Shown piece by piece: positions 24,015-44,524 of a DNA stretch of 64,000 nt. Position 1 is the first letter of the stretch. Each line of letters begins with the position of its first letter. The stretch is taken from NCBI GenBank assembly GCA_010356995.1, contig ML996688.1, positions 682,001-746,000 of the forward strand, read 5' to 3'. The DNA comes from Trichodelitschia bisporula (taxonomy: Eukaryota). The position numbers and the translations under genes were made by a program. The notes under the pieces were generated by a model that saw only the letters and a program-made list of their open reading frames with translations, did no database searches and was not told where the DNA came from.

Positions 24015-26334
24015 CTACCGAGCGCCCATCTTTATGATCCGAGTCTTCACCAAGAAGGGGCTGGGCATGTCGTCCTTCTCAGGATCCCAGACCGGTACTT
24101 CTTTGTCCGCCATGCGGGCAGCCACCCGGATGGTAGCGTTCGGGACGTCCTTGTCGCCACCACGAGCATGGGAGAGCTCCACAAGCGTGCGTCCCTGAAG
24201 CTGGTTCCGGAATGCCGTTTTGATCATGCCTTCATCCTTTTTGCTCTTCAAAGCAGGTTCCTTGGTTCCCTTGCGCACCGGGCTCCCAGCCTCGTTGACC
24301 TTCGCGGCACCAATCACCAGCGTACGGCCTCGAACAGGGCTCCCAGCGCGAACACGGGTGGGGCTGGTAGCGACAACAGGCACAGTGCTGACGGCACGCT
24401 TCACATTGGCGCCCGCATTCACAGCCGCCTGAGCGAAGATGTTGCCACCGCTAGCCATGCGCTTCGCATTCGCAGGAAGAGTGGTCTTAGCGCGTCCAAG
24501 GCTAGGCCGCTTCGACTTGAACAGACCGCGAGTCGGGCTAGGGAGAGTAACGATATCGTCGTCATCGGAGAGGTGCCCATCATGCTCGGTGTCGCTGATG
24601 TGAGGCGAGTTGAGCGCGGACGCGTTAGTCGCCTGCCAGCGGTCTTCCCCGAAAAGGTTGCCCTTCATCTTCGGCCCAGTCTGGCCGGCACCCGTGCGGC
24701 GTGGAGAAAGTGAGAGGCCCGCAATGGACATGGGAGACGGGTCGGCCATGTGGACATCCATCGGAGAAGGAACGTTGTTGACGAACATCGTCTGAGCGCG
24801 CGTGAATGGCGTCCGCGCACTACGCTTCATGGGTTTCACCTTGGAGAGTGTAGGAGATTCGAGCGACAGAGACGAAATGTCGGTTCCAGAAGGAAGCTCC
24901 GAAGAGTCGGCTGCGCTCACTGTAAGGGACGGGACGGAGTCCTCCGACGATGCCGAGTTCTGCAACGCACCGGCTTCGAGGGATGGGGTGCTTGAACGAG
25001 GCTGCTCGGCAGCTGCAATGGCTTGTTGAGCAGATACAAGCTTCAACTGCTCTGCAACCTTTTGGCTGACTTCAGTCGCAAAAATCTCCCGCAGGTGATC
25101 AGTCTCCTTTAGGACTTGCTTGTCAATCTCAAGCCGCGCCTTGACTTCCCACTCCCGACGGACCGTGGCGTCCAGTTCGGCACGCATGGCATCACGCTCG
25201 GCATCGAGTCTAGCGATGCGGTCGGCCGCCTCCTTTTGCATGCGCTCGGCCAATTCCTTTTCCTTCTTCAGCTGCTTGCCAAGGTGAACCACCTCTTGCT
25301 CCTTCCTCATGAGCTTGACGACGGGTAAGTTCAAGAGATGGGCAGTGTCTGGCCGATTATTGGGGTTAACTTGCAGACAGCTGGTGATGACGCGCTGCAG
25401 TTCAGGCGAGTAAACAGGCGGGATAGGCGCGACGCGGCCCGTCTTGATCTTGTGGAAGAGCTCAATGTGCGTCCGGGCGTTGAACGGAGGCTCCTTCGCG
25501 CACAGCTCGTACATGAGACAGCCCAGCGACCAGATATCCGAGTAAAGGCTGTAGCGCTCCGCCGCGCAAATCTCCGGAGACATGTAGTACGGCGTGCCAA
25601 CGTACGTCGAAGCGAAATCGTGCGACTGGAGGATCTTTGAGAGGCCGAAATCGCCGAGCTTGACGGAATTCTCATCATCAAGGAAGACTGTTCTGTTAGC
25701 GTTTGGTAGCACTTCTAGCGGGCGGGAACCTTACCGTTTTCAGGCTTCAAGTCCCGGTGCAGAATCATGTACTGCATCTGCTTGCTCTTAAGCGCCCTCC
25801 CGTTGTTTCCAGTGCTCATGACATTGCGTCCAACTTCAGGCGGAGCCTCGCCATAGTGACAGCGGTAAAGAGCCGAGACGAGCTGAGCGAAGATGCTCCA
25901 AACGAATTCTTCGTCGGCGTACTGATTGTGCAACTTCAACTTCTTGATGACCCTGCTGAGATCACCATTGCCGCAGTATTCCATGTACAAGTGCAGGTCT
26001 TGGGTAGTCTTGAGGTGGTCGCGCTCGAAGTACCGGACAATGTTCGGATGGCGCAGTTCCTTGAGAATGGACAACTCGGCCTGCAACTGCTCCCGCTCCT
26101 TCGGGGACATGCGAGTGTAGCTGATTTCCTTACGGCAGAGAATCTGTTGCGCCATGAGTATTTGATATCGCAATACCTGGGGATGTACTCACCAGGCCGT
26201 CGGACTTGCGACGCACTTTGTGGATGACCCCAAAGGATCCATGGCCTGCGAGTTAAGTCAGCGATGGCGACGCGTCCATTGACGATCTGCATACCAATTT
26301 TCTCTAACACTTCATACTTCTCGGAGTCCGCCAT
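24015..26334 (-). CDS. nimA: G2-specific Ser/Thr kinase NimA (NEK family)
   Basis: Exons 26334-26295, 26245-26193, 26143-25735 and 25687-24015. YEVLEKIGHGSFG, HPNIV, HRDLKPEN, KLGDFGLSK and FASTYVGTPYYMSPE, followed by a coiled coil and the C-terminal WDPEKDDMPSPF motif. Confidence 0.96.
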
Positions 26335-26740
26335 TGTGAAAGCAAAATGGGGGACGAGTGTGTGTAGTGTTAATGGGAAGAGTGGGTGAAGGGATACTGA
26401 ACCAAGGTTGAGGTACTTGGTTCTGAAGGAGTATTGGTAGTGTACCTTGTAGATGTGCAGGCTTCTGTTGACAAGCCCTGCATGCATATGGTTGCTCAGC
26501 AACGCGTCTCGCATGGTGGTATGTGCGTTGTGGGGGCCCGTGCGTTCTTGCATGCGGTGATAAGATTAGATCTTGGTCGGCCCGAAAGCGGAGCGTGCCT
26601 GCCGGAGTTAACACTCGTGAATGACGACAGGTGGGATGGGAAGGCCGTCGTCGGAGTATTCACAGGTTTTATCTCATCTTTTTGTTTTTCCTGTTCCCGT
26701 TGCACCTTTCCTTTCGTCTCATCCGCACGCGCATAGAATA

Positions 26741-28759
26741 ATGGTCTCAAGCAAGCATGATATCGAGGCTGCACTTCTTGCCGAAAAGCGGGCCATATCT
26801 GCTGGCCAGCTCAAGGAAGACAACCCGTTAGATCTTAGCGATGATTTTAAACACTTTTGCGAAGCTTGTAGGAGAGGAGATCTGAAGGTCTGTCAGGAGA
26901 TGATTATGCAAGGAGTCAACATCAATGCACGGGATAGTTTCGACAACACCCCGCTCATTCTGGTGAGAGCCCCGGTATCGTCGGTGGCGTCGAGTTCTAC
27001 GACGCCTTACATAGCAAGAAACTGGTTGCTGATTGCTATTTATACAAGGCTAGCCTCTGTGGCCATTATGAAGTAGTTCAGCTTCTCCTAGAGTCCGGTG
27101 CTCTCTGCGAACGAGACACCTTTCAAGGCGAACGCTGCCTGTACAATGCGTTGAACAATCGCATCCGCAATCTTCTCCTCGAATATGACTACTCCAAATC
27201 CACCGATCCCTTGCAGCCTCTCGCCGCGCACGTCGCTTCCTTACTGAGTCGAGAGCATCCCAAGACGTCTGACCTGGCACTTGTAACCGAAACAGAGGTC
27301 TTTCACATTCACAAGTTCCTGGCTGCCACACGATCCCCCTACTTTGCTCGACGGCTGGCCGCTGCGCCGGGAGTGCGGTCGTGGAAGGTACCAAACGGTT
27401 TACATTCAGAGTCGCTTCAGGCCGCGCTCCGCTTCCTCTACCTGGGCGAGGTGACAGCCGACCTGGGCGAAGGAGAGAAGGAGCAGGAGATATTGACGGG
27501 CATCGACAAGCTCAGCCGGCAACTGGAAATTCCGCGTCTGTTCGAGCACATTTTGGAAAGCGGCGATAGGCGGCTGGTCCGCCAAAGGCGCACGGAGGAA
27601 GTGAGCCGAGGCCGGGACGAGCTGGATGCATTCTTTCGAGGAAATGTGGTTAAATACAAGATCGAGGTCGATACCAGCAAAGCGGAAGACGTAAAATGGG
27701 ATAAGAACAATTACATTTTTGCCGACATCCTCTTACGAGCCGATGAGGATCCCTTGGAGCCGGAAGCCGAGGAGCCACCACCAGTTGTCCGCAAGGTGGC
27801 AGGGCCGTTGAACGGAATTCCCATCGGCCCCTTCTCAAGCGATTCTTGGTCACCGTCTCGGACGCGAAAGCCTCGGAGATCAGTGCTTTACCCCGCACAC
27901 AAGGCGATGCTCTTACGCTCCGAGTACTTTCTCACCATGTTCTCGTCGTCATTCAAAGAGGCCCAGGACACAGAGTATCTGCAGATTGTTACGATAGACT
28001 GCACCCCGGAGGTGCTAGAAGTTATCCTCACGTTTCTATACACCGAGAAGGCCGATTTTGGGCTAGATGTGGCCATTGATGTCTTGTTTACTGCGGACCT
28101 TCTTTTTATTGAGAAGCTCAAGGTTCGGGCTGCACAAATCATTAGCACACTCGGCAATGGTGGAGCGTCGGTTGTGGAGGCGGACAATTCAAGAGGCGAG
28201 GCGGGCGCCGAAGAAATCGACATCTATGATGTTATCAGGGCCGGGTGGGATACGCGGGTCCAGAGACTGGAAGAGTTTGGTGCTAGATACCTCGCCCAAC
28301 GTCTTGAACATCACATCGATCGAGAAGAGTTCGCCGAGCTGGTCAAAGAAAGTGCCGCACGGGTCAAAAACCGTCAGGAAACGGACACAGTAGAACTCAT
28401 CGATGAGTATGCCATTCTGTACACTATTCACTATTCTGTTGTACTAACGGACGCTCAGTATCCGCTATGAGCTCTCAGAACGTTACCGGCTTCGGTTCGA
28501 AGAAGCTGGCATAGATGAGATGGAGGAAGCCGCAGGAGGACTCCTACAGGACAGTGGCAGCTCGGAAACTGGCCAGTCACCACCACAGAACTTCCAGTCG
28601 ATATATGCACCCGAGATCGATGGAGAACTCCAGCATGGAGTAATCCGAACACTCGACGGTGAGATTGCAGGTGACGAATTTGCCCAGGACGCCATGAACT
28701 ACCAGATCCTACTCGGCAAGATTGACACATTGCTCGCGAGCCTGAACCTCGACGCTTAG
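26741..28759 (+). CDS. Ankyrin repeat and BTB/POZ domain protein (ABTB1/Btb3-like Cul3 adaptor)
   Basis: Introns 26963-27048 and 28407-28458. Ankyrin CEACRRGD...NINARDSFDNTPLILASLCGH, then CERDTFQGERCLYNAL and two BTB domains (FHIHKFLAATRSPYF; YPAHKAMLLRSEYF). Confidence 0.92.
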
Positions 28760-29118
28760 TGAGAAGTGTATGTGGGTTGGGTATGGCAAAGCGTCAGTAC
28801 TACAATGAAGATATGAAGCATATCACGACTTGATGTAGACTGTTCTGTAGATGTAGTCCTGATTTAGAGGACTGTAGTGAACAGCTTGACGTTCAGGCCT
28901 AGTGGGCGCATGTGCTTGCGACGCGGGCCCAGATGGTTGTTTGGCCTTGAGGTTCTGGGGTATTGCGCGGAGACCCCTGCCTTTGAAGCGCCAACCAGTG
29001 ACGTCATAGCTGGACAAGTGCACTATTCGTAGAGTCCAGACAATCGCCGCAACTCAACAGCCCATCACTTGCTTCACCCACCGACGATCTGTCATCCCCT
29101 AAGATAACCCTCGTCAAA

Positions 29119-30255
29119 ATGGGCCAACGTGAGGTTTCCGTATGCAAGTCGATACTGCGCGCTATTTTCCATGACTACAAGGACAAACGCACGCTTCTCC
29201 TCCGAATCTTCGCCTTCTTCACCTTCTTCCAGATCAGGCTTGCACGGTATAGAGAAGAACTCTTCAAGAAGCTGCGTACGGACATCTGGGGGCTGGACGA
29301 GAATGAGTACCGGGAGTCCTTCCGCTCACACGAGCGCAAGGGTAAACTCAAGGCGATGGGGGACCTTGGATACTCTGGATCAGTTAGTTACACTGCCTCG
29401 AGGCTCGCTGAAGCTTTCTAATATCTCTCATAGACGTTTTTCTCCACGCCAAATTCTAAATTCCTTATCAAATCACTCCCACGACGGTCCGAGTACACAT
29501 TTTTCTGCCGGGACCTTCTGCAGCCGTACTTCGATCATATGGTCGAGAATCCTAACTGCCTACTCGTTCGCATCACCGACCTGCTCTACTCGCCCTTTGT
29601 CACGCTTGGAGGTATTCTGGGCCTGGCTCCGCCTTGCCATATCGTGATGGAGAACATCCTATATGGCAAAGAGAGTGACAGCGAGGGAGATAAGTGGGAG
29701 ACGTACGACCTCAAACCCATCAGCTACTTTTACCCGGAGCGCGATATTGCTGGAGGAAACTTAGCTCCCGATAGTGTGAAGGAGAGGCTGTTCGACAAGT
29801 TCGAGGACACAATTCGCGTCACAGAGAACGACCGGATAATGCTTCTGCAGACTCTCCAAAAGGACACCAAGATTCTGGAAGAGTGCAACGCGGTCGACTA
29901 CTCCCTCTTCGTCGTACGCTATCCACCACCGACCGAGGGCCACGTTCGCCATATTCCCAGCTTGAAGTCACACTGCTCACAGTGGCGGTCCGGAGTTCCA
30001 TCCGTCGACGGCAAATGGATCTACAAGGTTGTCGTGCTCGACTTCTTTTGGGCAAAACACAAGTTCCAGGCCAAGGCAATGACCGGCTTGATTAGTGCTT
30101 TCAATCTCATTTCCCGGAAGGGCCATATGAGCATCACTACTGACCCTGACGAATACCGAGAACGCTTCCTGCGGATGGTGGACAGCCTAGTTGAAAGTGA
30201 TCAGACGACCGGTGTTGCAGAGACAACATCGCGCATCCCTAGCACCACTGAGTGA
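29119..30255 (+). CDS. Phosphatidylinositol-phosphate kinase (PIP5K domain), short form
   Basis: Intron 29383-29433. GDLGYSGSTFFST...KFLIKS, NPNCLLVRI, HIVMENI, YDLKP, DTKILEECNAVDYSL and P..YRERFL. Confidence 0.88.
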
Positions 30256-30887
30256 CGTCTGCGAGTCGTTTGAGAAGGGCCGGTTTGTATAGTTGGCGTT
30301 GGACTGGTGGCATAGGGTCAACGTAAATGAAGATACCCAATTTGGTGTTTAGTCGCGAGGTTTGCTATGGTGGATTCCTTTGTTTATTTACTAGTTCAGT
30401 TACACACGATTTGCTCGATGTTGAAGCTCATTAGCTGAAAATCAGCGAGCAGGTATCACTGTGTTATGTGGTGATGCCATTCTCAAGATTCTCTTGATAT
30501 AGCTGGGCAGCAAACAGCATACAGAAGTCAAGATGAAGGAGCGCAATATATCGATGGCATTACTATTGGACAAGCAGGCGCGTTGACTGGCCCAATGTCG
30601 CTTCGTGCAGATCTCAGCCGACGCCTGCAGCGAAAAGGTGACCCCATGAAGACGGAACGACCTCCTCAAACTCGTGAAACGCTCCATACAATGGCAAAGT
30701 CTTGTGGCCACGCATCAACCCGGTTTCACCTAGAGTGCTCCCGCGCCATTCGCCTGTTCGATCTACAACCTCATTGAATTTTTGGAGCTTGCATTGTTTG
30801 CTTTGGGAATTCCGACAAACCTTACGGTTGCAAGCTAGCTCCGTCTCTTCATTTCGAACCCCGCCAGCCGCGCGTTACTACGTCACA

Positions 30888-31591
30888 ATGGGCATGCTCA
30901 ACATCGTCGTCCAGGCCGCAGCGCTCAGCGCGCTGTCTAACGTCCTCGCGCAGCTCATTTCGAACTACCAAGAGAACGTAAGTGCAGTACATCTCCACAA
31001 CAGTCAAACGCGGGGTTAGGAGCGCGCGTGAGTCAAGTTCTCGTAGCTAACGCGCGTCTCTCGCGCTGCACCACAGAAGCCCCTCACGTCCTTCGATCTC
31101 AAGCCCATCATCATCTTCGTCGTCTACACCATCCTCAACACGCCCATCAACGTCCTATGGCAGGACTGGCTCGAAGACGCGTTCCCGGGCGCGCCGACCC
31201 CGCCACCCATCCGCCCCGGCGATGAGAAGAAGCCGGTGCAAGCGCCGGCGTCGAATACGCGCAATCTCGTGATCAAGTGGGTGCTGGATCAGACGGTGGG
31301 CGCGGCGGTCAACATTGGCATGTTCATTGCTGGGGTGGGGGCGCTGAAGGGGCAGGGGAAGGACCAGATCGTCGCATCGTTGCAGAATGTAGGTTCTGGA
31401 TTTGAAGTGCGGTGCTGGGAATCGATGCTAACTTGCGATAGGATATGTGGCCGATCTTTATGGCGGGGACGAAGTTGTGGCCCGCTGTTTCGGTCATCAG
31501 TTTCTCGGTCGTGCCGGTCGATAAGCGCGTCATTTTCGGGAGCGTGGCGGGTGTGGTCTGGGGTATCTACCTCAGCCTTGCGGCGAAGTGA
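30888..31591 (+). CDS. Mpv17/PMP22 family membrane protein
   Basis: Exons 30888-30977, 31077-31388 and 31442-31591. SNVLAQLI, PINVLWQDWLE, KWVLDQTVGA and LWPAVSVISFSVVPVDKRVIFGSVAGVVWGIYLSL. Confidence 0.9.
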
Positions 31592-33626
31592 GGAGATGAT
31601 CTCGGACCTCGAGAGGACACGAATATGCAAAAAGTGATGCGCGCTGCCGTTTGGCGTTTACAAAGAGCGGGGAAAGACGTGTCAATGGATAGAGCACTCA
31701 CAATGACGATATGCGGAACATGAGATAGGCTGGGAAACAACCTCTTCATCTGAATCTTCTGTCTGCGTCAGGAGTATGTGACCTGAGCAGATTCTCCGCT
31801 CCACGGCTCGAAATTTACCGGACCTCTAACAGCAGTGACAGCGGAAAGGGTAGCACGAATGGCATCATCTCGAACGAAGCATGCAACACATCAATAAGGC
31901 CGCAATCACTTTAAACGGGACAAGCTTTTCGAACAAAAGCTTCGTCATGAGCTTCTCTCCGCCCCGAAACTGGGGGAATCTTCCGTCTCCACAGGGGCCG
32001 TTGTGTGGTTTCCGGATAATCAGCTCGATCCGATGCCAAAGTTGTCGACGCCACCAGTTCTCGAATGCTCCGGAGAGCGACTTCGGGGGCGCCACCTACG
32101 CGTCGGTTGATCTCAGAGAGAATATGCTGCATTATGAGAGCAACTCTGAAGGTTAGATTTGCCACCAATCCGTGCCTGAGCTCCTGCTGTCGAACATGAA
32201 AGGCTTCAATTTGACGGCTGGTTGATGCACAGTGCTTCAATTACTTAGGCGGCGAATATTAAACAAGTAATGTTGGCCTGCAATATGTCCATCGCTGCTA
32301 CCTCCGTGCTGACCACCGACATAGATCTATCTTGGGACCAGGGTGCTCGTGCTCGTTGCCCTGAGTGTGCGGAGTATGCCACGAGGAGAGCAGCATTGCA
32401 CGCCATTGGGCTCACTGTGTGATTGGGATTGCAAACGCAGGCGCCCTCGGTGGTCGAGCCCCTTCCCCGCAAAAGCGCGGCAATTCTTCCACGATCAGTT
32501 TCGTTCCATTCTAGATTACATATTGCTCTCCCTGGAAGACGAAGGACTCGTTCCGCTCATGGACTTCCAAAGCATTACAGCAGAGCATCCTCGGAGCAAG
32601 AGCTTCATTCCGTATATTGGACGCCAAGTCCGAGCACGTCGTCAATTCCGAGTCCGACTATCGAGTATGTGTCCGTCAAGTCCGAGGAGCGGAGCAAGCA
32701 CCTCGCGTACACTTATTGTACTAGTCGGCGAAATTTGTGCCATTGCGCCCTCGGCCTCGGCCACTCCAACGTCAACCGGGTAGCCAAGCGGCGGACGCGT
32801 GCGTCCCGTTGACCAAACGAACAAGAATAGCAGCCTCCTGTTTGAACGGAGCAAAAATAACAACTGATCAAATGTCTGCGCGGCTTTAGCGGTTTGACAA
32901 GAAGTTTCTAGTGTGCAGCGCATATGTTGGACCGCGCACGCAGCGTCGAAACCAGTGGCAACGGCGCAACTTGGCGCCTGCATAAGCAGCCGAGAAGCAG
33001 CGCCGACCCGGATGGAGGTGAAAATTGGCATGAGCAAGCTTCGCCAAGTTTGCGGGGGATGGCCATGCCGCAATATGGTTAACCGGCGTAAGCTTTGAGC
33101 CCCGGCCTGCGTGGCAGCCTGTCGGATTGCGAACCTGGATCGGGACCTGGCCCGCGCGCTGTCTTTTCCGTGAAACGAGGTACCAGATTGACCACCATCC
33201 TTACTGGGCATCATCGCTTGCTACTGGTGATGTATATTGCTTGTTGCGTAAGAGAAATGTGGTCGCGCTGGCGGTCGGTAGGCTGGTGGGCTTATTGATA
33301 CAGCGCCGATGAGCTTCAGTACCATGCCGGCCGGTCAGCCGCGTCACCCCCCGGGGCTGCGGGGCTTGTTCCTGGATATAACGTCTAAGTTGACTTCATC
33401 TTAGTACGGCACGCGCAAGGCCTGAGGCGTGGGTCCGTGGGGCCTAAGGCCGCTGTTGAGCGCGGGGGCATGTGGGGCACGATGTCGGCATAGGTGCTCG
33501 GAGCCTCGTCGACGACGGGGCGAGAGCAACATCGAAATGAAGGCTGCGCAAGAGTTAATCTCGAGACGGGAAAATATCTTGGTAAGGCTTCATCTGGAGG
33601 AGGTCAGTCTCGGTGCGTCGAAGATG

Positions 33627-33634
33627 TATAAAAA
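33627..33634 (+). promoter_or_regulatory. TATA box of the KR-repeat precursor gene
   Basis: TATAAAAA about 125 nt upstream of ATG 33752. Confidence 0.6.
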
Positions 33635-33751
33635 GCATCGTCGGGTCGTTCGAGTTGGAGTTTTCCTCAGCAGTAACAGCAGTTCAATCCGGACAGCCAC
33701 TCCTTCAACACAATCCTTTCCAGACCTACCTGAGCCAGACATTCCTTCACG

Positions 33752-34778
33752 ATGCTCAACGCAGTCAAGTTCGCGATCATCGCGCTCTTCCTGAGGTAAC
33801 CCCCCCCCCCCACTTCCCCACCACAGCATCAACTAACCCATCTCCAGCACCGGCGTCATCGCCTACCCCGTCGACGCCACAGTCGACACCACCGCCGCCC
33901 TCGCCGCACCCGCCGACCGCCCCGAATGGGAGCGCGAGCGCGAGCACCGCGAACACCGCGACTGGGAGCGTGAGCACCGCGACCGCGACCGCGACCATCA
34001 CGACCGCGACCGTGGCGACCGCCGCGGCTGGAAGCGCGACGTCATTATCGCTGATACCGCTGCGGCGCCGGCCACCGAGCAGTATGATGACCGTGAGAGG
34101 GAGCGCCGCGAGCGCGAGCGCTGGGAGCGGGAGCACCGCGATGATCGCCACCGTGACGAGCACCACCGCGACGAGCGCCACCGCGATGAGCACCGTGGCG
34201 ACCGGCACGGGTGGAAGCGCGATGTCGCTGTTGCCGATGCGGCTACGGCCCCTGCGGCTGAGCAGTATGATGACCGCGAGAGGGAGCGCCGTGAGCGTGA
34301 GCGCTGGGAGCGTGAGCACCGTGATGAGCGCCATCGGGATGAGCGCCACCGCGACGAGCGCCACCGCGATGAGCACCGCGGCGACCGTAATGGGTGGAAG
34401 CGCGACGTAGCCGTCGCCGATGCGGCTGAGGGTGGTGATCGCGACCACCACGACGGGCGTGACCGCCACGACGGGCGTGATCGCCACGACCGCGACCGCG
34501 AGCACCACCGCGACGAGCACCACCGCGATGAGCACCACCGTGATGAGCACCGGGGCCGTGGCCGCGATGGCTGGAAGCGCGATGTAGCGGTTGCTGAGGC
34601 GGCGCAGGCGACTGAGGCGGTTGAGGGTGGTGATCGTGACCATCGCGACGGGCGGGACCACCGCGATGGGCGGGACCACCGCGATGAGCACCACCGTGAT
34701 GAGCGCCACCGTGATGAGCACCATCGTGACGAGCACCACCGCGATGAGCACCGTGGCCGTGGCCGCGAGGGCTGGTAG
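33752..34778 (+). CDS. Secreted KEX2-processed repeat protein (KEP) precursor, 324 aa, five His/Arg/Asp/Glu-rich repeats
   Basis: Exon 1 33752-33795, intron 33796-33847 (GTAACC...ACTAAC...CAG), exon 2 33848-34778. Signal peptide MLNAVKFAIIALFLSTGVIA. W-K-R codons start at 34029, 34212, 34395 and 34572; the protein ends GREGW*. Not in the ORF track. Confidence 0.88.
33925..34775 (+). repeat. Coding tandem repeat: ~180-nt units with nested 15-nt (CACCGCGATGAGCRC) subrepeats
   Basis: Spacing between TGGAAGCGC anchors is 183, 183 and 177 nt; nested HRDE(H/R) pentapeptides. Confidence 0.9.
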
Positions 34779-35740
34779 GGGATTTTTGGTCTGAGGAGGT
34801 GTGCTGGGAGGGAAAAGGGGAGGATGAAAGGCTGATGTGGTTTTTTTCTTATCTTTCTTTCTGTCGCTTTCGTAGTCGCTTCTTTACTTTGCCGCTGTTT
34901 GCAATGGCAGATGGCAAAATATAAGGTTCGTTGCGACTTTGGGGATGCTGTGAGTCCGATGTTGCGCTGTACGGACCCGAGGCTATGGTATGCCGACCTG
35001 CCTCACGGCGACGTCAGTGTCATGATGCTGATATCAACGTTGGCCTCTAGGGTTCTTAAATAGGTACCTATCATGGTTGGAAGGGTAATTCGCTATCCCG
35101 CATTCACGCTTTAACGTTCGTAACTGATGTGGACAAGTAGTAGAAGTATAGGCATGACACCTGCATTAGCTACTGTGTGAAATGAGAGGTTGTGGAAAAG
35201 ATGAAGAGAGGAGAGAGTCAGAGATGCTCGAGACCAAATACACTATGAGCACATCTCCATGAGCTCCTGCTTTGTCTATATCAACAAGAGCAGGAGCATT
35301 GCTGTATGCAGGAAGGAGCATATCGTGATACTTCAGGAAGCAGCATATGGGAGGCATGACGCAAACATGTATTTAGTCTCGGGCAGCTCCGCCACTAAAC
35401 CTTCTCTTGTTCTTGTTCTTCATCTTTCATTCTACTTCCACTCTGCACTCTTTTCCATTGCACATGCCTTCAGCCGTGCTCCCACTGACAACGAGGTGCC
35501 CTGACAACGGCAGCGGCATGGAATATCGTCAGGAGCATAAGTCTTGTCGGCCTGTCAGGAATGCATCCTGCACCATGCCGGCACCTCTCATCCATGTCCT
35601 CGGCCCTCAACCTCACCCCTCACTTCCGCATCGGGATAAGTATCGTCGTAGGCACACACGTACGTAAAGCACGACAACCCTCCAGCAACCCACTCCACAC
35701 CGCAACATTGCTCCGTCCAAGGCATCAGAAATTCTTCAAA

Positions 35741-37101
35741 ATGGTTTCAGAAGACACCCCCCAAACGGCTCCCATAAACACCTCAGCCAACACCTACAGC
35801 GCCTACCAAAGTGAAATATACTACAAGGGCATGTTCCTCAGCACTCTCCCCCTCGTAACAACCGACCCAAACAAGCTAGAGGCCCAGGCAAAGGAGCATC
35901 TGTCCGCGAAGAGCTATGCCTACGTGGCTGGCGGGGCGGGTGAGCGCGCAACCATGGACGCTAACCGGCTCGCCTTCCGGCAGTGGAAGCTCATCCCGCG
36001 CATGCTTCGCTCCTCCCCAGTCTCCCTTCAGACCACACTCTTCGGTCACACCCACCCGTCACCCCTTATTTTATGTCCCATCGGCGTTCAGCGCATCTTC
36101 TACCCGGACGGCGAATGCGCCACCGCGCGCGCTGCCGCCGCGGTTCGTGTACCGTATACACTGAGCACGGCGGCTAGCTCCACCATTGAACAGGTCGCTG
36201 ACGCGATGGGCGATGCGCACCGGTGGTACCAGCTGTACTGGCCAAAGACAGACGAGATCACAATTTCTGTATTCCCCCCGGCCCGGCTCGAGGAGCATAA
36301 ATAATGCGAGTTCAGTTGCTTACCCGCGCGAAAAAGGCTGGCTACTCCGTCCTAGTCGTAACGCTGGACACACCCGCACTGGCCTGGCGGCCATGGGACT
36401 TGGTGCGTCCCCCCTTTCACCTTTCAGACCCACTTTCACCCCCCCCCCCCCTAACCCAGGCCTAGGACCAAGGGTATATCCCCTTTGTCACCGGGCTGGG
36501 CAACGAAGTCGGCTTCTCGGACCCAGCTTTTCAGCGCATCTTCCGCGCCGCCCATGGTAAAGATCCAGCCGATGACATCACCGCTGCATCACTTGCCTGG
36601 GCGCAGGACGTTTTCTCAGGCCGAGGGCATACCTGGGACGATCTGCGCCTGCTACGCGAGCACTGGAGCGGCCCAATCGTGCTTAAGGGGATTCAGCACG
36701 TGGATGATGCGCGGGCCGCGGTTGAGGCGGGGGTGGATGGGATAGTAGTCTCCAACCATGGCGGGCGGCAGGTGGATGGGGCGATTGGCAGCTTGTCCGT
36801 GTTGTCTGAGATCGTGGATGCCGTGGGTGACAAACTGACGGTGCTCTTTGACTCCGGCGTGCGGACAGGCGTGGATGTGATCAAGGCGCTGTGTTTGGGG
36901 GCCAAGGGGGTTCTGCTGGGCCGACCGTGGGTGTATGGCCTCGCCATCGGGGGGCAGAAGGGTGTGGAGCAGGTGGTGAAGGGGTTGTTGGCGGATACGG
37001 AGCAGAGTATGGGGCTCGCCGGGATTGCGGGCGTCGACGGGTGTACGCGGGATATGCTGCGCTTCGTGGAGTACTCTGGGGACCGGGCCAGTTCGAACTG
37101 A
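35741..37101 (+). CDS. FMN-dependent alpha-hydroxy acid dehydrogenase (lactate 2-monooxygenase-like)
   Basis: Introns 36269-36315 and 36403-36465. YVAGGAG, ANRLAFRQWKLIPRML, PIGVQ, WYQLYWP, VVTLD, VSNHGGRQVDG and DSGVRTG. Confidence 0.93.
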
Positions 37102-37223
37102 ATTAGAATTACATGGTTAAGCGCCGCGATGGACGCTCTTACTCTGTATGGTACATTGCAATGATGCCGCCGGTAAACGCCCGTATGCTCTCTAAAAGTG
37201 CGCAATGATCAAAACACCACCCT

Positions 37224-39476
37224 CTAGTCGGACATGCGCTTCGCCTTGCGCTTCCGGCCTCGCGTGACGATCCCTTCACTCTCAGGCTCGCTCTCGGCCC
37301 CATTCCCATTCGCCTCGTCCTGCACCTCCGCATCATCGTCCTCCCCCTCCCGCGCACTCATCACAAAGCGCAACTTCGTCCCCGGCGCCTCCTTCCTCCC
37401 CTTACTCGTCAGCTTCAACCGCGGAAAAGTCTGAGGAGAACCCGGTACCTCGGGCTCCGTCATGTTCGACACCGGCGCCGGTGCCGGCGCATACGGGCTC
37501 TTATACGGCCCCTTCTTCCCGGCACTCGGCAGCATCCCTAAACTCGCACTCCTCACACTCCCTCCCCCACTACCTCCCTTCTTAACCCACGGCGTGCGCA
37601 CCCCTGTCCCAGCACTGTCACCGTCGGCAGGAACAGCAGCGTAGGGACTCATATACCCCTTCGCATACGGCGACGCGTAGGCCGGCTTGAAAGCGGGCGG
37701 GAAGAGCCCCGACCCAGACGCCGGGGCGCTCGCAGCTTTCGACTCCGTCGCAACCGGCGTTTCCATGGCTGGGGCATTCGGACTCCTCGTAGTGGTGCGG
37801 GCGCGCTTTGCGGGTGGGGAAGGCGAATCGCCCACAGTTTCTTCGGTGGCCGAGTTGTCGAGCGCGGCAGCTTTGCGGGCTGAGCGGGTGAGCATGGTTA
37901 GCGTTGTTGTTGAGGGAGTAGGTGCGGGGGTGGGTGGGGAAGGAGCGGTACGGGAGGAAGCGCGGTGGGTGCGCAGGCCGCGGCGGCGTACGGGAGTGGG
38001 GTCTTCTTCTGCATCATCTACCTGCTGTTCTTCCTCGATGGGGTCGTCGTTCGCGGGTTCTTCCTCGATGGGTTCTTCGTTCGCAGTTTCATCGTCTGAG
38101 GAGTCTCCTGCGAGGGCGAGGAGGTTGCCGACTGCGGTACTGAATGCGGATTTGCCGGGGGCGAGGTCGGCCCAGGTTAGGGGGGTGGTAGAGGCAGTGG
38201 CGTCTTCTTCCGAGGCATCTTGCGTGGTAATAGCTGTAGGAATGCTGGCAGCATCGCCACGTCCGCGGGCCCGACTACCACGGGGACGGCCGACTCGACC
38301 GCGGGTTTGACCGGCTCGACCACGGCGACGGCCGGCGCGGCCGCGGGATTTGGGAGGGTCTGGCTGAGGTAATTCGGCCGGCGTTTCGGTAGAGGGATCA
38401 GGAGCTGCAGTAGTGGGTGCAACGGTCGGCGTAGCGGTAGCGGCGCCACGTCCACGCCCTCGGCTGCCGCGTGGACGACCGACTCTACCGCGACCCGGTG
38501 GACGCCCAACACGGCCTCCTCTGCTGCCGGGGCCTCTAAGCGGGCGAGCTGGGGCTGTGACGTTATCCTCTGGAGAGGGAGAGGATGATTGTGCGTCATT
38601 ATCATTTGCGTCTTCTTCTTCTGTGTCGAATACGTGTGTGAGGGGGCCCGCGTCTGACATGGTAATGTCGCCGTCGTCATCGTTGGGTTCTTCCTCGGCA
38701 GCTTCCTCATGCTCGGCGGCTTCTTCAACCTCAACTTCGGCGTCGGAATGCTGGGCTTCCTCATCTGCCTCCTCGTCGCTTCCTTCATCTACTTCCTCTT
38801 CTGCTTCGTCGGGTTCGGATGGGGGAACATTGATCGCACTCCAACCACTGCTTTTACCAGCCCTAGCACCGACAACGGATCCGCCTCGAACCCGACCGCG
38901 TCCACGGCCGCGTCCCCGCGTAGAACCCCGCGTAGAACCCCGCGAAGAATCCTGAGCGGCAGTTGAGACCGGTGCAGCACTAACTCCCCTACCACGCCCA
39001 CGCGCTCTGCTCGCACGACTACGAGACGACGGACGACCACCCCGTCCACGACCACGACCGCGAGCACGGCTGCGAGAAGTCGGTTCCGGGTCAGCTGGTT
39101 CCTCAGAGGTGGCGTCGGCGGCCGAGTCCTCAGCGGCGGAATCCTCAGCGGCCAAGTCCTCAGTGGCCGATTCCGTAGTGGTCGGTTCCGTAGTAGCTGG
39201 GGCGGGAGTCGTAGTTCCGGGCGTCGTAGTTGCGAGAGTGATGGGGGAAGGCGCGACTAAGGGCCTGGTGGCGTTAGTAGCTTCAGCAGGTCGATCCTTG
39301 GGAGAGATGGCCCGCTGCGTTTGGTTCCCAGATGCAGCCCCGGTGGATGAGCCTGTGGTTGCCGCGGCGGAGTTTGTTGCTGAAGAGCGATTTCTACGAG
39401 ACTGGCGAAAGTCTAGGACTGACATGAACTCTGCCATGGGCGCCGCCGTGCTAGCGGGGATTTGTGGGGTTGGCAT
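37224..39476 (-). CDS. 750-aa intrinsically disordered RG-rich/acidic protein with AT-hook-like GRP motifs and C-terminal NLS-like tail
   Basis: Single long ORF; GRVGRPPGRGRVGRPRGSRGRGRG and RGRVGRPRGSRARGRG, acidic E/D tracts, ends RGRKRKAKRMSD. Confidence 0.7.
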   Translation of the reverse strand: MPTPQIPASTAAPMAEFMSVLDFRQSRRNRSSATNSAAATTGSSTGAASGNQTQRAISPKDRPAEATNATRPLVAPSPITLATTTPGTTTPAPATTEPTTTESATEDLAAEDSAAEDSAADATSEEPADPEPTSRSRARGRGRGRGGRPSSRSRASRARGRGRGVSAAPVSTAAQDSSRGSTRGSTRGRGRGRGRVRGGSVVGARAGKSSGWSAINVPPSEPDEAEEEVDEGSDEEADEEAQHSDAEVEVEEAAEHEEAAEEEPNDDDGDITMSDAGPLTHVFDTEEEDANDNDAQSSSPSPEDNVTAPARPLRGPGSRGGRVGRPPGRGRVGRPRGSRGRGRGAATATPTVAPTTAAPDPSTETPAELPQPDPPKSRGRAGRRRGRAGQTRGRVGRPRGSRARGRGDAASIPTAITTQDASEEDATASTTPLTWADLAPGKSAFSTAVGNLLALAGDSSDDETANEEPIEEEPANDDPIEEEQQVDDAEEDPTPVRRRGLRTHRASSRTAPSPPTPAPTPSTTTLTMLTRSARKAAALDNSATEETVGDSPSPPAKRARTTTRSPNAPAMETPVATESKAASAPASGSGLFPPAFKPAYASPYAKGYMSPYAAVPADGDSAGTGVRTPWVKKGGSGGGSVRSASLGMLPSAGKKGPYKSPYAPAPAPVSNMTEPEVPGSPQTFPRLKLTSKGRKEAPGTKLRFVMSAREGEDDDAEVQDEANGNGAESEPESEGIVTRGRKRKAKRMSD

Positions 39477-41003
39477 TGCTACACAGTATCAGGGTTTTCT
39501 AAACTCAATGATTAGGGAGCGGTTTCATAGAGAGAATGGTTGTGATGATGTTCAGGTATAGAGCAGATATGAACATAAAAATGTATACAAGTATAGTGAG
39601 AGACTTGGCGCAAAATTAGTGCATACAAAAAGAGAAGGAGCTATGCTTGTGGTAATCGATATCGCGTCAACCAATATCACCCTCCAAGCATGGACGTTGA
39701 TGTCTTGGTGCGGTGCTTAGGCCATGACCAGGTGCGAATGATCAAATGGAACACAAAGAGCATCAACTAAGAAAAGACAAGCAGAGCAAAGAGGACAAAG
39801 TGCGCAGCAACTAAAATCACTTACGTCAAATCAACCTTCGTCTCTGTCTCGGTCTGTTCGCCCGCTTCCACGACGTCTCTTCTCCTTCCCACGGCTGCAC
39901 GCCGTCCAGCACGTGAATGGGTGTTCAAACACAGCTGAGGATGTCGTCTAATATTCACAGTCAGGGTCTATGAAGTCGCAATAATTTCAGTGCTTGACAC
40001 CGTCGTCTGCACGTGCCTTCGAAGCCACGATGGTGTCACGGCGAAGGGCAAAAGTGACTTGAAAAGGAATTTTGAACAGATTAGTAAAGCGGCCTGAGTG
40101 TAAAAGCAGACGAGTGACAATGTTAACACAAGCAAAAAAGCGGCTTTCGAAGGTGTTGAGTTTCTCAAGCTGATTGTGAAAGATGAAGCGAGAAGCGAAA
40201 GAGTGCACGTCTACTAGCAACGATCCCAAGATTTTCCCAATCCGGTCAAGCCCCGGATGGACGAAACGAGAAGGCGGTCGTTGCGGTACGCGGTACGCGT
40301 GGCAAGTTGACAACACAACGCAACGTGCATATACACATCACCTGGTCGTCCTTTGCAAAGACAAGCTTAAATTAAATCTTCTTGTGAAGCGCAGTTGCGC
40401 ACTTGCTTTCCCAAAATATTATGCTGCTACTTCTCACCGCTCTGCTCCTTTGCGACGCTCTTTCCATCGACATGCACCTGTTGCCTCTGGCCTTGGGCGT
40501 CAATGGCGGCCTCGTTGTCACTATCTAAGTGGCATGCAAAAAGTGAAGCGGATATTTGAAAGACCCGGATAGTAACCTTATGGATATCGTGAGGCAGAGA
40601 GCAGACCACAGTCAAAAGTGATCATAAAGGTTACATCTCCAGAACATCAAGGCGCCATCAACAGTAATCAATAAGCAAAGGACAGAAGGTGAAGATGCAC
40701 AAACAATTACTGCACAGGATATCTCAAACTACTGCTGCCCTTGGGTTACGATCCATAACCACGCTCATCCCAACCGAAGCCATACCGTTATAGCCCTAAC
40801 CATGCGCGCCCATGTGCCACCTCAAACTCATCCACACAACACAAAACCGTGCCACTTCGACTCCCAGTACCATCTGCGCCATGTGTCGCTCTAACCCATC
40901 CCCCATTTGACCGTAATGGTCAAGGAACCTGATTAAACGACTGTAAAATCGCGCTGACGAGCTGGCTGAGAAATCTCACAGACCAATCCACCGTTAAACG
41001 ACC

Positions 41004-42857
41004 TCAGATAAACCGCAACCGCTTGGCCAGTAAAATCATGAAGAGCACAAAGAAAACCAGGAAGCCCACAATCCCGAAGAACCAAGCCAAGCCGCCAGAG
41101 TCGCGTCCTGGTACCGGTACGTTCATGCCAAAGAGACCAGTCACAAGGTTCAGCGGCACCAAAATGGTACCCACCAGAGTGATGGTGCTGAACACCTTGT
41201 TGATGTTATTCCCCTGTTGCAGGCTCTCCACATTCAGTTGCCCGAGGAAGTTTGCATGCAGCCGGCTCAGTACTTGCTCTGTGTGGGTCAGGTTGTCTCG
41301 CATCGTCATGACGTGGTCCTGGATATCGCTGAGATAGAGGCCCACATCGCCACGCGGCGCCGACTCGTACTGCTCGTTGCACCGCTTCGCAAAACCCTTG
41401 ATGACGTCCGGCTTTGAGCCTAGCAAACGTAGCAGTGACATTGCCTTCTTGCGGCAGTCAGAGATGGCGCGCAGAATGGGACTTGCATCGACCGACGTGG
41501 CGATGAACACTTGATCCTCGATATTGTCGGCCTCCACCTCGACGTCGCGGATCACAGGCATGAAGGTATCGACGATATCGTCGATGAGTGCATAACAGAT
41601 CCAGTCAGCACTCAGCTGCATGTAATCCCGCAACCGGCTTATGCGCTTGCAAACATTCTTCGTATGCGGGTGCGCGTCGAAGCTGAAAGTGAGAAGACCC
41701 TCGCGGAACACCACGGCAAAGACCTTGACAGCTTCCATGTAGTCCTCGCTGGTTTTGTCCATTTGATGGAAGGAGGTGAAGCTGACAAAATAGTACGTCT
41801 TGAACAACTCCACCTTCTCGCGTGACTCCTTGGTCGTGATGTCCTCCCGCGTCAGTGGATGCACACCAAACGCCTTGCAGAGTGCCGTAACCTCTTCATC
41901 TGTCGGATTGACTGCGTCGAGCCACCAGCACCCTCCGTCAGGCCCGAGGCGGAAAAGGCCCTCGAACGACTCCCCATCCTCGAGCAAGCCACCAATAGTT
42001 GTTGCATGGATAGTGTCGTCCAGTTCGGAGGAGAAGAAGGTCCAAAAGCGGCGCACATTCTCTACCGAACGCCGGTCGGCCGAAGTAGCCCTACACTGCG
42101 GGAGCTTCTCCAGGTCGGAGAGGTCCACATCCGAACCCTTGGGGGGTGGCGATTCGGTGCGGTCCGGCGTGGCCACCTTCCCTTTGCCAACGACGCTTCC
42201 AGATCGGCCTAGTTCCGTCTCTTCAACAAACTCATGGAGTTCCTCGAAATCGATGCGGTGCTCGTCGCTACGACCATCGTCTGACTGCGGATAGCACACG
42301 TCATCCTCGGCGGAAGCGTGGCTGCTACCTTCCGCGGCGTCATCGTCTTTGCTCTCGCTGAAAGTGGGCCGGCGCCGGTGCGTTTCGCCGGAAGTAGTTC
42401 GGTGAAGCGCCAAATCCACCGACGACCGGCGGCTAGTCACTGTGTTGGCCCGTTCCCGACGGCGTGACTGGTCAGCAAATGCATGCACTGAGTTGGGAGG
42501 CGACGGGGAGCTGCTCCCTGACGAGGAGTCGTCCCGGGTGTTGCGACGGAACGCGTTGCGCCGGCCGCGCTGAGAGGGGCGACGGGCGAGGGGCGTCTGG
42601 CCTCCCGGAGAGGGTGGGGCGCTACGCTCATCGTCGATAATGGCATGCTCGAAATCGCGCACCGTCATGCCATTAGCAAGGTCCACATGCAGCAAGCCCG
42701 GGCGGTCCTGATTGATGGTGCTCCGGCGCGTCGCAAGAGGAGTCTGAGGCGGCGGGATGTAGAGCGTGGTTTCCACGCGAGGGACCTGGGCCGCCTGTTG
42801 ACGATGGTCATCCAGATTGGGGCTGCCGGAGCCGATAATGCGGGCGTTGTCCGTCAT
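41004..42857 (-). CDS. CorA-family Mg2+ transporter (Alr-type)
   Basis: WWLDAVNPT, FGVHPLTREDI, REKVELF, DWICYALIDDIVD, LYLSDIQDH, GLFGMNVPVPG (GMN motif) and two C-terminal TM helices. Confidence 0.93.
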   Translation of the reverse strand: MTDNARIIGSGSPNLDDHRQQAAQVPRVETTLYIPPPQTPLATRRSTINQDRPGLLHVDLANGMTVRDFEHAIIDDERSAPPSPGGQTPLARRPSQRGRRNAFRRNTRDDSSSGSSSPSPPNSVHAFADQSRRRERANTVTSRRSSVDLALHRTTSGETHRRRPTFSESKDDDAAEGSSHASAEDDVCYPQSDDGRSDEHRIDFEELHEFVEETELGRSGSVVGKGKVATPDRTESPPPKGSDVDLSDLEKLPQCRATSADRRSVENVRRFWTFFSSELDDTIHATTIGGLLEDGESFEGLFRLGPDGGCWWLDAVNPTDEEVTALCKAFGVHPLTREDITTKESREKVELFKTYYFVSFTSFHQMDKTSEDYMEAVKVFAVVFREGLLTFSFDAHPHTKNVCKRISRLRDYMQLSADWICYALIDDIVDTFMPVIRDVEVEADNIEDQVFIATSVDASPILRAISDCRKKAMSLLRLLGSKPDVIKGFAKRCNEQYESAPRGDVGLYLSDIQDHVMTMRDNLTHTEQVLSRLHANFLGQLNVESLQQGNNINKVFSTITLVGTILVPLNLVTGLFGMNVPVPGRDSGGLAWFFGIVGFLVFFVLFMILLAKRLRFI

Positions 42858-44524
42858 TGCGAATAAATGCCTCGCTGGCTGCCGGATGCGGTTAGATCAA
42901 GTAGTAACCCGGCAGCGCTCTCACAGCCAAGGCCTGTGCAGGAGTGGAGGAGCGACAGGAGCTGTGCACTCTACCGCGAAGCGCGTGCGACAAAGCCGAA
43001 GATCCGAGAGGGTAGTGATGGAAAAGGTGAGCCGCTGCGAGCGCTCACCGAGTGAGGTTGCCCAATTTGACCGGACGGCTTCGCGTAGGGGCTCCCCTAC
43101 ACTCAGCCGAGGAGTGATGACCCAAGAGATAGGCGAAGAGATGGAATTCCAGTTGGACGCGAGATGCTGATCTTCAAGGTGAACAAAGATTCAAAGCGAT
43201 AAACGCAGCTTCGGTTCTTGTCAGTGACAAGTTACGGAGGCTTCGTGTCGCCTCCAATGACCCAAACTTTTGGGCCCAAGAGAGGGCGAATGAACGAGAA
43301 ACGGAATGCGTAGAGTCCCGCCAACTTGATGGTTTTGATGGGTCTGAACGCCGAGGCGCCGGGAAGGAGCAAGCTGTGCGGGGTTTTGCAGCGTAAGTTT
43401 GTGAGAGCGAGCTCAGAAACACTTAATGTAGTCCGAGAAAGCGAGGGCGAATTTTGCAGCGGAGGAGTGAGTTGGAGGAGTGGGGTTGTTGTTGTTATTT
43501 GGTGGGATGGCGGGCATGAGCGAGGGTGAGAGAGAAGGGTGAAAGGGTCGGTGCGGTAGCGGCAACGTCTTGGCTATGGAAAAATGTTTCTTTGGCCCGC
43601 CCCACAACACCAACTGGTCTACCCACGGGACTCTCAGCCTCTCGGGACGGAATCAGGATTCAAGGACAACAAACAATGGCAAGTGACGCTGACACGAAAG
43701 AACTGGGTCGTAAGCCTTTGTTGTAGTTCTTTTGGGAAGTTCCTGAGGCGAAGGGTGCATCTAAGACAATAGCACAGAAAGGGGGGTTTCGTCAGTATTG
43801 ATAGAAGAGCAGAGAAAGCAACTAAAAGGCGAGAGAGGAGGCGGCGGCATAAGGGCGGGGATAGGGTATTGATATTCAGCCTCTTGTATTCGGTCTTCTT
43901 TTAGCGCCCGACAAGTACTCCGTAGGTAGAAGTTGTCAGGCTTCTGCGACCTATGTGCGCCTGAGCTCCAGGAATTTTCTTTGCTGCCGCTTGATGACTC
44001 GGCCTTTTGTTGCGACAAGGAGTGCCTGACCATTGGAGACGACTCCTGGTACGTACTTTACAGTCGCCGAGTGAGCTACATATCCGTAGTGGCAAAGACG
44101 TAATTCATACGTAGGCTGCTCTTCAGCTTACAACCCAATTCTCAGAGCTGCAGAGCACCAATGTCATGGCCTTTATTGTATGCACAATGTTACTACTGTA
44201 GTTGTACCGCACCGGGAGTTTGTGGATACACGCAGTGTGATGATGATGTGCATCGCGTCGCATTGGTGTAGTTCTCTACTGTAGTACAGACGCTTTATTA
44301 CCCACTCATTTCGTGTCATGCCCGCACCGCCACACCCCTTTGGTTTCCACCAGCCATACTCTCCATGTCATACGGGATAGGCTGAGCGCTATTGGTCGGC
44401 TCGCGGCGGCCCTTGCACCTCCCGCCTCCATCTCCGCATCTGCCCAGAGGCCACGATCGCGTTCCACTTGACCACGGAGGACTCCACGGTCCACACCCGC
44501 CTACCAGACAAACACGAATTCGTC

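Follow-up and report, generated by a model that had tools for sequence, protein, structure and literature searches.

The locus at positions 33752 to 34778 (+) in a 64,000-nucleotide stretch of the genome of Trichodelitschia bisporula (contig ML996688.1 of assembly GCA_010356995.1, positions 682,001 to 746,000; this whole stretch is hereinafter the window) raises the question of whether a tandem repeat rich in guanine and cytosine (GC), whose long open frame lacks a methionine of its own, is the major part of a genuine gene, and, if so, what manner of product it might specify. We propose that it is probably an expressed fungal gene with a single intron, coding for a KEX2-processed repeat protein (KEP). 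Three features raise this gene above chance, namely contigs that skip the intron, a start resembling a signal peptide, and two independent relatives.

The open frame at 33837-34778 runs for 313 codons with no internal Met and, hence, is overlooked by lists of open reading frames (ORFs) that are built from ATG codons. Upstream of it, an ATG at 33752-33754 (+), with an A at position -3, opens a frame that closes after 15 codons if left unspliced. Removal of a 52-nt intron (33796..33847, +), which starts with GTAACC, ends with CAG, and, 13 nt ahead of that end, carries CTAAC as a branch-like motif, joins a 44-nt exon 1 (33752..33795, +), where the start codon and the opening 14 2/3 codons of a putative signal peptide lie, to a 931-nt exon 2 (33848..34778, +), which completes the signal peptide and supplies the five repeat units and the stop codon TAG at 34776-34778. 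The resulting coding sequence of 975 nt has 324 codons and a strong codon bias, with a GC content of 0.77 at third codon positions (GC3), 40 GAG versus 2 GAA, and 35 CAC versus 4 CAT codons. This is the model that a first-pass annotation had put forward, with the leader joined across the intron to a frame that its ORF list had missed; our independent translation is identical to the protein claimed there, and the frame does lack a Met of its own. The TATA box that it had placed at 33627 is also present, as a TATAAA at 33627..33632 (+), 125 nt 5' of the ATG; it is one of five such hexamers on both strands of the window, and the 852 nt scanned would be expected to hold 0.07 of them. Between this box and 33752 there is no ATG, and the frame is closed on its 5' side by an in-frame TGA (33731..33733, +), 21 nt before the start codon.

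Contigs of four public sequencing runs, compared with the window over 33400-34200, bear directly on the splice junction. Two of these are DNA runs of one sample, possibly the source of this assembly (X1 and X2), and their contigs retain the 52 nt. The contigs of the two others (X3 and X4, of 3883 and 4083 nt, respectively), which belong to one sample of one study, join 33795 to 33848, thereby skipping exactly 52 nt with GT..AG ends; the skipped segment is 33796-33847 after the cut is shifted by two ambiguous letters. They are otherwise collinear with the genome over 33400-34200, including 33400-33795 up to the end of exon 1. The intron proposed at first pass is, then, missing from one pair of contigs and kept in the DNA contigs, and mRNA is the best reading of a form from which precisely a GT..AG segment with a branch motif is absent. 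Relative to the genome, the contig of the putative RNA sample shows synonymous C>T differences at two positions, 34166 and 34169. At the other end of the gene, the X3 and X4 contigs have loose ends of 246 and 255 letters, which start with the final codons of unit 5 and reach to about 35000-35009. They suggest a probable 3' untranslated region of uncertain extent (34779..35009, +), but since contigs cannot define RNA ends, this position is a weak hint only.

The spliced frame opens with what appears to be a signal peptide, as judged by rule-of-thumb criteria rather than by a dedicated predictor. Residues 1-20 display a Lys in the n-region, a 14-residue hydrophobic stretch (7-20) with a mean Kyte-Doolittle hydropathy of 2.46, and V-I-A at positions -3 to -1. 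The likely cut after V-I-A would place the last part of the leader, begun in exon 1, at 33848..33863 (+), and an alternative cut after S-T-G (residue 17) fits equally. The rest of the protein is made up of five units of 56, 59, 59, 57, and 65 residues, each ending in GW and separated at all four boundaries by KR. The first three are of one type, which we term type A: an acidic spacer rich in Ala, Thr, Pro, and Val follows the KR (or the leader in unit 1), and leads into an ER-rich core with Trp and WEREHRD, then RHRDE/HHRDE pentads, and the terminus HRGDRxGW. Unit 1 (33864..34031, +; 56 residues) has three Trp and an RR pair two residues before its GW; unit 2 (34038..34214, +) and unit 3 (34221..34397, +), each of 59 residues with one internal RR, form a repeat with a period of 183 nt and 85% matches. 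The last two units are of type B, in which a spacer beginning DVAVA is followed by three DGRD(R)H hexads with a period of 18 nt, then by HHRDE pentads with a period of 15 nt, and finally by the terminus HRGRGRxGW, with 11 His in each. Unit 4 (34404..34574, +; 57 residues) runs from DGRDRH hexads into HHRDE pentads and resembles one of the relatives described below (P0003), and unit 5 (34581..34775, +; 65 residues) has its GW directly before the stop codon. The four KR junctions lie on the same strand at 34032..34037 (AAG CGC), 34215..34220, 34398..34403, and 34575..34580.

In an alignment of all five units, the invariant columns cluster at the C-terminal R-G..R.GW, and DV follows KR at four of four junctions; the junction codons for G, D, and V vary synonymously (GGC/GGG, GAC/GAT, GTC/GTA), the residues remaining constant. 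Arg, Asp, Glu, and His account for 211 of the 304 residues after position 20 (69%), with no Cys and no internal Met. Lys is found at protein positions 6, 77, 138, 199, and 258, i.e., one in the leader and the remainder in the four KR pairs. The first-pass annotation had made much of this confinement of Lys and of a last unit that stops exactly at GW, and both observations hold, with TAG following directly on the GW. Its picture of five Cys-free peptides of ~57-65 residues survives in part: there are indeed five units that end in GW (56-65 residues) and have no Cys, but it had overlooked that RR also occurs inside the units, at protein positions 73, 101, and 162; these three pairs are formal Kex2-type sites under a published definition (PMC7329392).

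The published definitions of KEPs allow this architecture to be placed more exactly. The rule of Umemura 2020 calls for at least three repeats, of at least eight residues and none above 100, between KR, KK, RK, or RR (PMC7329392), and the five units of 56-65 residues fall within it; when the RR pairs are also counted as sites, the pieces are 22-65 residues long plus a single 2-residue GW, and the rule still holds. Under the rule of Le Marquer 2019, clustered repeats should cover at least 15% of the protein (PMC6339444); here the units and their junctions make up 304 of 324 residues. A leader is present by rule of thumb, and the dibasic boundary is KR in four of four cases here and RR at both boundaries in the relative P0002. 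Thus, the claim made at first pass that this is the layout of a KEP, a leader followed by dibasic-bounded tandem repeats that fill most of the protein, agrees with the criteria given in these sources. Two other sequence features relevant to the fate of such a product were considered. The protein displays no C-terminal hydrophobic tail for a glycosylphosphatidylinositol (GPI) anchor, no HDEL, and no N-x-S/T, and a C-terminal amidation signal was rejected, as the order is G-W-K-R instead of W-G-K-R.

We then asked what is related to this protein, using a partial sequence of it (P0001) as the query. An HMMER scan of 1.84 billion cluster representatives recovered a single relative, P0002 (283 residues; E 5.1e-4), an unnamed protein from a metagenome assembly in the European Nucleotide Archive (ENA) that forms a cluster of one member; in a pairwise BLASTP comparison, it matches P0001 with an E of 6e-6 and 42% identity over 109 residues. 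P0002 has a signal-peptide-like start of its own, an N-terminal propeptide that agrees at PV..TV.TT, and Thr/Asp/Ala-rich spacers that lead into cores bearing RE.EWER[ED][HY] and RHRDD. At both of its unit junctions the sequence is HW-RR-DV, despite the units being only ~40% identical. It differs in having two Cys per unit, and its C-terminal third has the look of an error in the frame or in the prediction. A profile of P0001 and P0002 finds a second relative, P0003 (187 residues; E 1.1e-4), an unnamed metagenome protein from an 865-nt ENA contig, which begins with a leader and an Ala/Pro/Thr spacer and continues with GDRYHDGRYRDGRYRDE... (RYRDx) pentads ending ...RDEHRWEREH. Its match to the type B units, in particular to unit 5, amounts to 64% identity over 42 residues, with Tyr in place of His. 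The tail of P0003 is a sequence unrelated to the repeat part. By eye, this tail resembles the C-terminal part of a transposase, and it probably stems from an insertion or from an artefact of gene calling. For P0003, Pfam gave no match at E<=0.01.

Beyond these two proteins, the searches yielded little. Pfam returned no family at threshold for the window protein, the best being DUF3720 (PF12517) at 17.4 bits (E 0.0089), against a gathering threshold of 25 bits; a sequence search of the PDB gave no match at E<=1, and tblastn found no paralogue within the window (best non-self match, E 0.2). In word-indexed homologue searches, P0001 had no match among 8000 scored candidates and P0002 recovered only itself; neither of the protein collections searched returned the window's own protein. 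A protein-pattern scan of metagenomes produced 591 pattern matches, none of which was confirmed. A degenerate DNA pattern for WEREH...W[KR]RDV matches three times in the window (units 1-3) versus none in 100 shuffles; its two hits in metagenomes (loci L001 and L002), both in unrelated ORFs, were dismissed as chance. In the ESM Atlas, P0001 and residues 1-190 of P0002 share their first match, a 187-residue Ascomycota cluster with 56 members that has been automatically named 'Wd40 repeat', with scores of 0.77 and 0.82, respectively, both below the 0.9 level, such that this is a lead only. Our search of the literature found no paper carrying any of six motif strings from the protein and no description of a comparable His-rich, Kex2-type, secreted fungal repeat protein. 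The supplements of the KEP catalogues have no occurrence of the six motifs, but as these files give accessions, counts, and expression values and hold no peptide sequences, this absence is uninformative, and the catalogues may list an uncharacterised relative. Hence, the earlier view of this as an unrecognised family fits what we find, which is neither a Pfam or PDB relative nor a paper with the motifs, and only two unnamed metagenome relatives. From the sequence comparisons, the peptides appear to constitute a rare, undescribed family, with the KEP catalogues having been compared by criteria and not by peptide sequence.

If this is a KEP precursor, its maturation can be sketched by analogy with the yeast alpha-factor and with Rep1 of Ustilago maydis. 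The leader of about 20 residues would bring the 324-residue precursor into the endoplasmic reticulum and then be removed; a Kex2-type convertase would cut after each GW-KR in the late Golgi; and a Kex1-type carboxypeptidase would take off the K and R. The expected outcome is five products of 56-65 residues that all end in GW, unit 5 doing so by virtue of its encoding. The three internal RR pairs may also be cut, giving rise to shorter pieces.

Several observations weigh against this account. Given the internal RR pairs, the outcome is less clear-cut than five clean peptides, and the products could be shorter than these. The RNA nature of X3 and X4 is a guess, no run being recorded as RNA, and they stand for a single sample of a single study. 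Their contig extends more than 2.5 kb upstream of 33400, such that a longer transcript with upstream ORFs is possible; over ~30880-33750, the extension could stem from an upstream transcript that is not annotated, from read-through, or from traces of genomic DNA. Beyond 34200 (34200-34754, units 3-5), the same contig is ~180 nt (60 codons) shorter than the genome, a deficit that reflects either collapse of the repeat in a short-read assembly or an allele or strain with fewer units. Moreover, the repeat region has a GC content of 70-72%, and since four further frames, of 201-368 codons each, are also open across it, an open frame alone is no evidence of coding. Nor does the pattern of substitution settle the frame. 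Units 2 and 3 differ at 28 nucleotides, 20 of which are at codon position 3, with 15 synonymous and 8 non-synonymous codon differences; however, one antisense frame, which shares the wobble positions, gives 18 and 7. As the antisense frame scores equally well, the synonymous pattern does not single out the sense frame, and we rejected the codon-position test as proof of frame. The antisense ORF itself (33998-35002), which has no Met until its last 14 residues, was rejected on the evidence of how the splice is oriented, of the start codon, and of the leader.

What the released peptides might do is suggested chiefly by their composition. The units have isoelectric points (pI) of 5.67-5.95 and calculated net charges of +5.1 to +9.2 at pH 4.5, +1.1 to +4.5 at pH 5.5, and -3.6 to -6.0 at pH 7.4; with pI values of 5.7-6.0, they would be cationic near pH 5.5 and anionic at pH 7.4. 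The His residues recur at a regular distance: a His-His spacing of 5 is observed 18 times versus 4.7 in shuffles (0 of 2000 shuffles reach 18) and a spacing of 4 is observed 10 times versus 4.8 (21 of 2000 reach 10). An AlphaFold2 (AF2) model, based on an alignment of two sequences and weak overall (mean predicted local distance difference test score, pLDDT, of 57.5), which counts against leaning on it, has long single helices at residues 26-66, 76-116, and 137-192 of P0001, in units 1, 2, and 3, respectively; 10-residue blocks reach a pLDDT of up to 88 in unit 2 and up to 94 in unit 3. The spacers and units 4-5 are modelled as unstructured, unit 4 with low confidence and no secondary structure. 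The cores of units 1-3 are, then, probably helical and units 4-5 disordered, as far as this model goes.

On these grounds, we tentatively consider it possible that the peptides act as extracellular, pH-switched polyampholytes, in which His would flip the net charge from positive at a pH of ~5.5 to negative at pH 7.4, and which may chelate Zn, Cu, or Ni; around the hypha, they would thus bind metals or the charged surfaces of the wall. More specific, and in our judgment doubtful, is the proposal of a new class of Kex2-released 'charge-switch' peptides that would turn from anionic to cationic on acidification of the surroundings by the fungus, after which they would take up Zn, Cu, or Ni or form condensates on polymers of the wall. 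Equally doubtful is its corollary that these would be a peptide counterpart to the zincophore proteins, made five per transcript, with the helical and disordered units differing in role. The idea of metal binding faces several difficulties. P0003 carries Tyr where His stands here; the period-5 spacing leaves His off any single helix face; no metal gene is adjacent, the nearest candidate being a CorA-like ORF ~6 kb away; and Mac1-, Zap1-, ZafA-, and SreA-type promoter motifs occur zero times. PacC-like sites (GCCARG) number three versus 0.85 expected, a weak excess that offers nothing usable. The main alternative for function is a role in the wall, matrix, or adhesion through contacts between Arg, aromatic, and acidic residues, whether the precursor is cut or uncut.

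The uncut version of that alternative is the best-surviving rival to a processed precursor. It holds that the product is secreted but stays whole, as a disordered, His-rich polyampholyte of ~33 kDa in the wall or matrix, acting as an adhesive or condensate via Arg-aromatic-acid 'stickers', its KR pairs being inaccessible or kept for another cause. There is a precedent in U. maydis, where no cut by Kex2 is predicted for seven repeat proteins and Rsp3 works on the hyphal surface (PMC5923269). The constant of the family would here be [W/Y/H]-R-[D/E] and not His, which agrees with the Tyr of P0003 and with the W, Y, and H of P0002; units 4-5 are predicted to be disordered; and cleavage of the precursor is itself argued from known systems. 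Against it, Lys after the leader is restricted to KR at four of four junctions, W-[KR]R-DV is the best-conserved element between distant relatives, the last unit ends precisely where trimming would leave the others, and there is no C-terminal hydrophobic tail through which a GPI anchor might hold the chain. We hence regard an uncut matrix protein as rather unlikely, and the processed precursor remains our preferred explanation.

A host-directed effector akin to SP7, which would mimic nuclear RD/RE/RS-rich domains and act in host nuclear condensates, is improbable. The alternating R-D/R-E runs of the present protein are presumably like those of nuclear-speckle domains. SP7-like proteins are described as having a leader and 6-11 hydrophilic imperfect repeats, each closed by a conserved island that the terminal repeats lack (PMC11333574), and [KR]R sites are strongly conserved in these repeats (PMC5293756). 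However, the SP7 family is described as specific to Glomeromycotina (PMC11333574), and the only sequence matches of our protein are P0002 and P0003; at neutral pH the peptides would have a net acidic character, and they lack a classical nuclear localization signal; and the flanks hold housekeeping genes in place of an effector compartment. The absence of any functional product, i.e., a spliced transcript passing through a GC-rich repeat or a young drifting gene, would accommodate the five frames open for 201-368 codons, the failure of the substitution pattern to separate the sense frame from one antisense frame, the RNA contig that extends far upstream, and the very few relatives, but is highly improbable given that splicing restores exactly the frame from leader to repeat, that a Met appears in the competing antisense ORF only within the last 14 residues, that two relatives from other sources keep the leader, spacer, junction, or pentads at ~40-64% identity, and that the codon bias is strong (GC3 0.77).

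The surroundings of the gene, from 23982 to 43170, were surveyed by a Pfam scan of 41 stop-to-stop ORFs; these had at least 120 residues over most of that range and at least 70 residues in the interval 30.2-33.4 kb. Upstream lie a protein kinase (24015-25730, -), a BTB domain protein (26938-28470, +), and a PIP5K (29434-30255, +); downstream are two ORFs for an FMN-dependent dehydrogenase (35489-37101, +) and the CorA-like transporter mentioned above (41004-42896, -; ~6 kb from the gene). Judged by these domains, the genes on either side are of an ordinary, housekeeping kind. Neither DUF3328 nor any other domain involved in tailoring peptides that are made by the ribosome and modified after translation (RiPPs) was seen among the 41 ORFs, with the proviso that split exons could escape such a scan. 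In the stretch at ~30880-33750, where none of the scanned ORFs has a Pfam match, we observed a 196-codon open frame (31047-31637, +) with a hydrophobic, membrane-protein-like stretch, inside the region covered by the RNA contigs; a small gene for a membrane protein may have one of its exons here. Two other frames deserve mention: one of 754 codons at 37224-39488 (-), just downstream of the FMN-dependent dehydrogenase gene and devoid of a Pfam match, and one of 313 codons at 46882-47823 (+), which by eye resembles a multi-pass translocon subunit of the Sec61-alpha type and is accompanied by an equally long antisense ORF.

The significance of the locus is, in the first place, one of gene finding, as a gene whose open frame has no Met until an intron is removed will be missed by methods based on ATG codons. 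In the second place, the gene is apparently expressed and spliced, and its cargo is unusual, with long Cys-free units that are 69% R/D/E/H and whose calculated charge flips between ~pH 5.5 and 7.4. Should pH-dependent binding of metals or surfaces prove true, these peptides would represent a new functional type among the secreted peptides of fungi and a simple, synthesisable model for pH-switched polyampholytes; should it prove false, a corrected gene model and a small orphan family would still stand.

To our knowledge, KEPs have been catalogued in the thousands, whereas a function is known for only a handful, such as pheromones, Rep1, candidalysin, and RiPPs of the ustiloxin type. The yeast alpha-factor is the classical case of a leader-bearing, KR-delimited precursor that is processed by Kex2 and then trimmed by Kex1. 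The present protein shares with its precursor (MF-alpha) the leader, the repeats set off by KR, and a final copy whose end is the mature C-terminus. It is, however, no precursor of an alpha-type pheromone: such peptides have 9-24 residues and bear the X-Ala/X-Pro STE13 signature after KR (PMC6339444), whereas the units here have 56-65 residues and D-V-(A/I)-(V/I) after KR, with no X-A dipeptides. In length, too, they stand apart from most catalogued KEPs, belonging to the '>51 aa' class, whereas repeats of 9-24 residues are the most abundant class in Dikarya (PMC6339444). Precursors of the ustiloxin type have a DUF3328 (UstYa) gene in the vicinity and short, Tyr-bearing cores (PMC7329392); here, the cores have ~60 residues with 0-1 Tyr each and no DUF3328 was found among the 41 ORFs, so this type was likewise set aside.

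Outside the KEPs, two groups of secreted fungal proteins invite comparison. The DELD proteins of Serendipita (Piriformospora) indica are small and secreted, with regularly spaced His in predicted helices (PMC3192844), and one of them, Dld1, is tabulated under metal ion homeostasis (PMC9610748), which makes them the nearest precedent for the metal-binding idea. As described in these sources, they are single chains of 101-135 residues with a C-terminal RSIDELD, a His/Ala pattern, and no KR-delimited repeats; membership was rejected for the present protein, which ends in ...GREGW, has no RSIDELD, and displays a pattern of H/R/D/E rather than His/Ala. The SP7-like effectors of Rhizophagus irregularis, as they are described, share with it a signal peptide and hydrophilic imperfect repeats with a conserved [KR]R end island that is missing from the terminal repeat, but their repeats are much shorter, at 6-16 residues, and they act in host nuclei. 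The library-wide scan, which gave P0002 only, offers no sign of a link to SP7, no direct comparison with the SP7 sequence having been made.

The closest parallel is Rep1 of U. maydis, a basidiomycete protein with which no sequence similarity was detected in the HMMER scan. It has 12 repeats of 34-55 residues with Kex2 sites between them and is processed to peptides of 35-53 residues that are kept at the hyphal surface (PMC4617103). Like the protein described here, it has long units separated by Kex2 sites, and it provides a precedent for KEP products of ~50 residues that act structurally and not as hormones. The Rep1 peptides are amphipathic and form amyloid-like fibrils, whereas the units of the present protein are extreme polyampholytes, whose cores are almost devoid of hydrophobic residues. 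Thus, the layout of this precursor is a well-known one, while the family of peptides that it would carry appears, from its sequence, to be undescribed and very rare.

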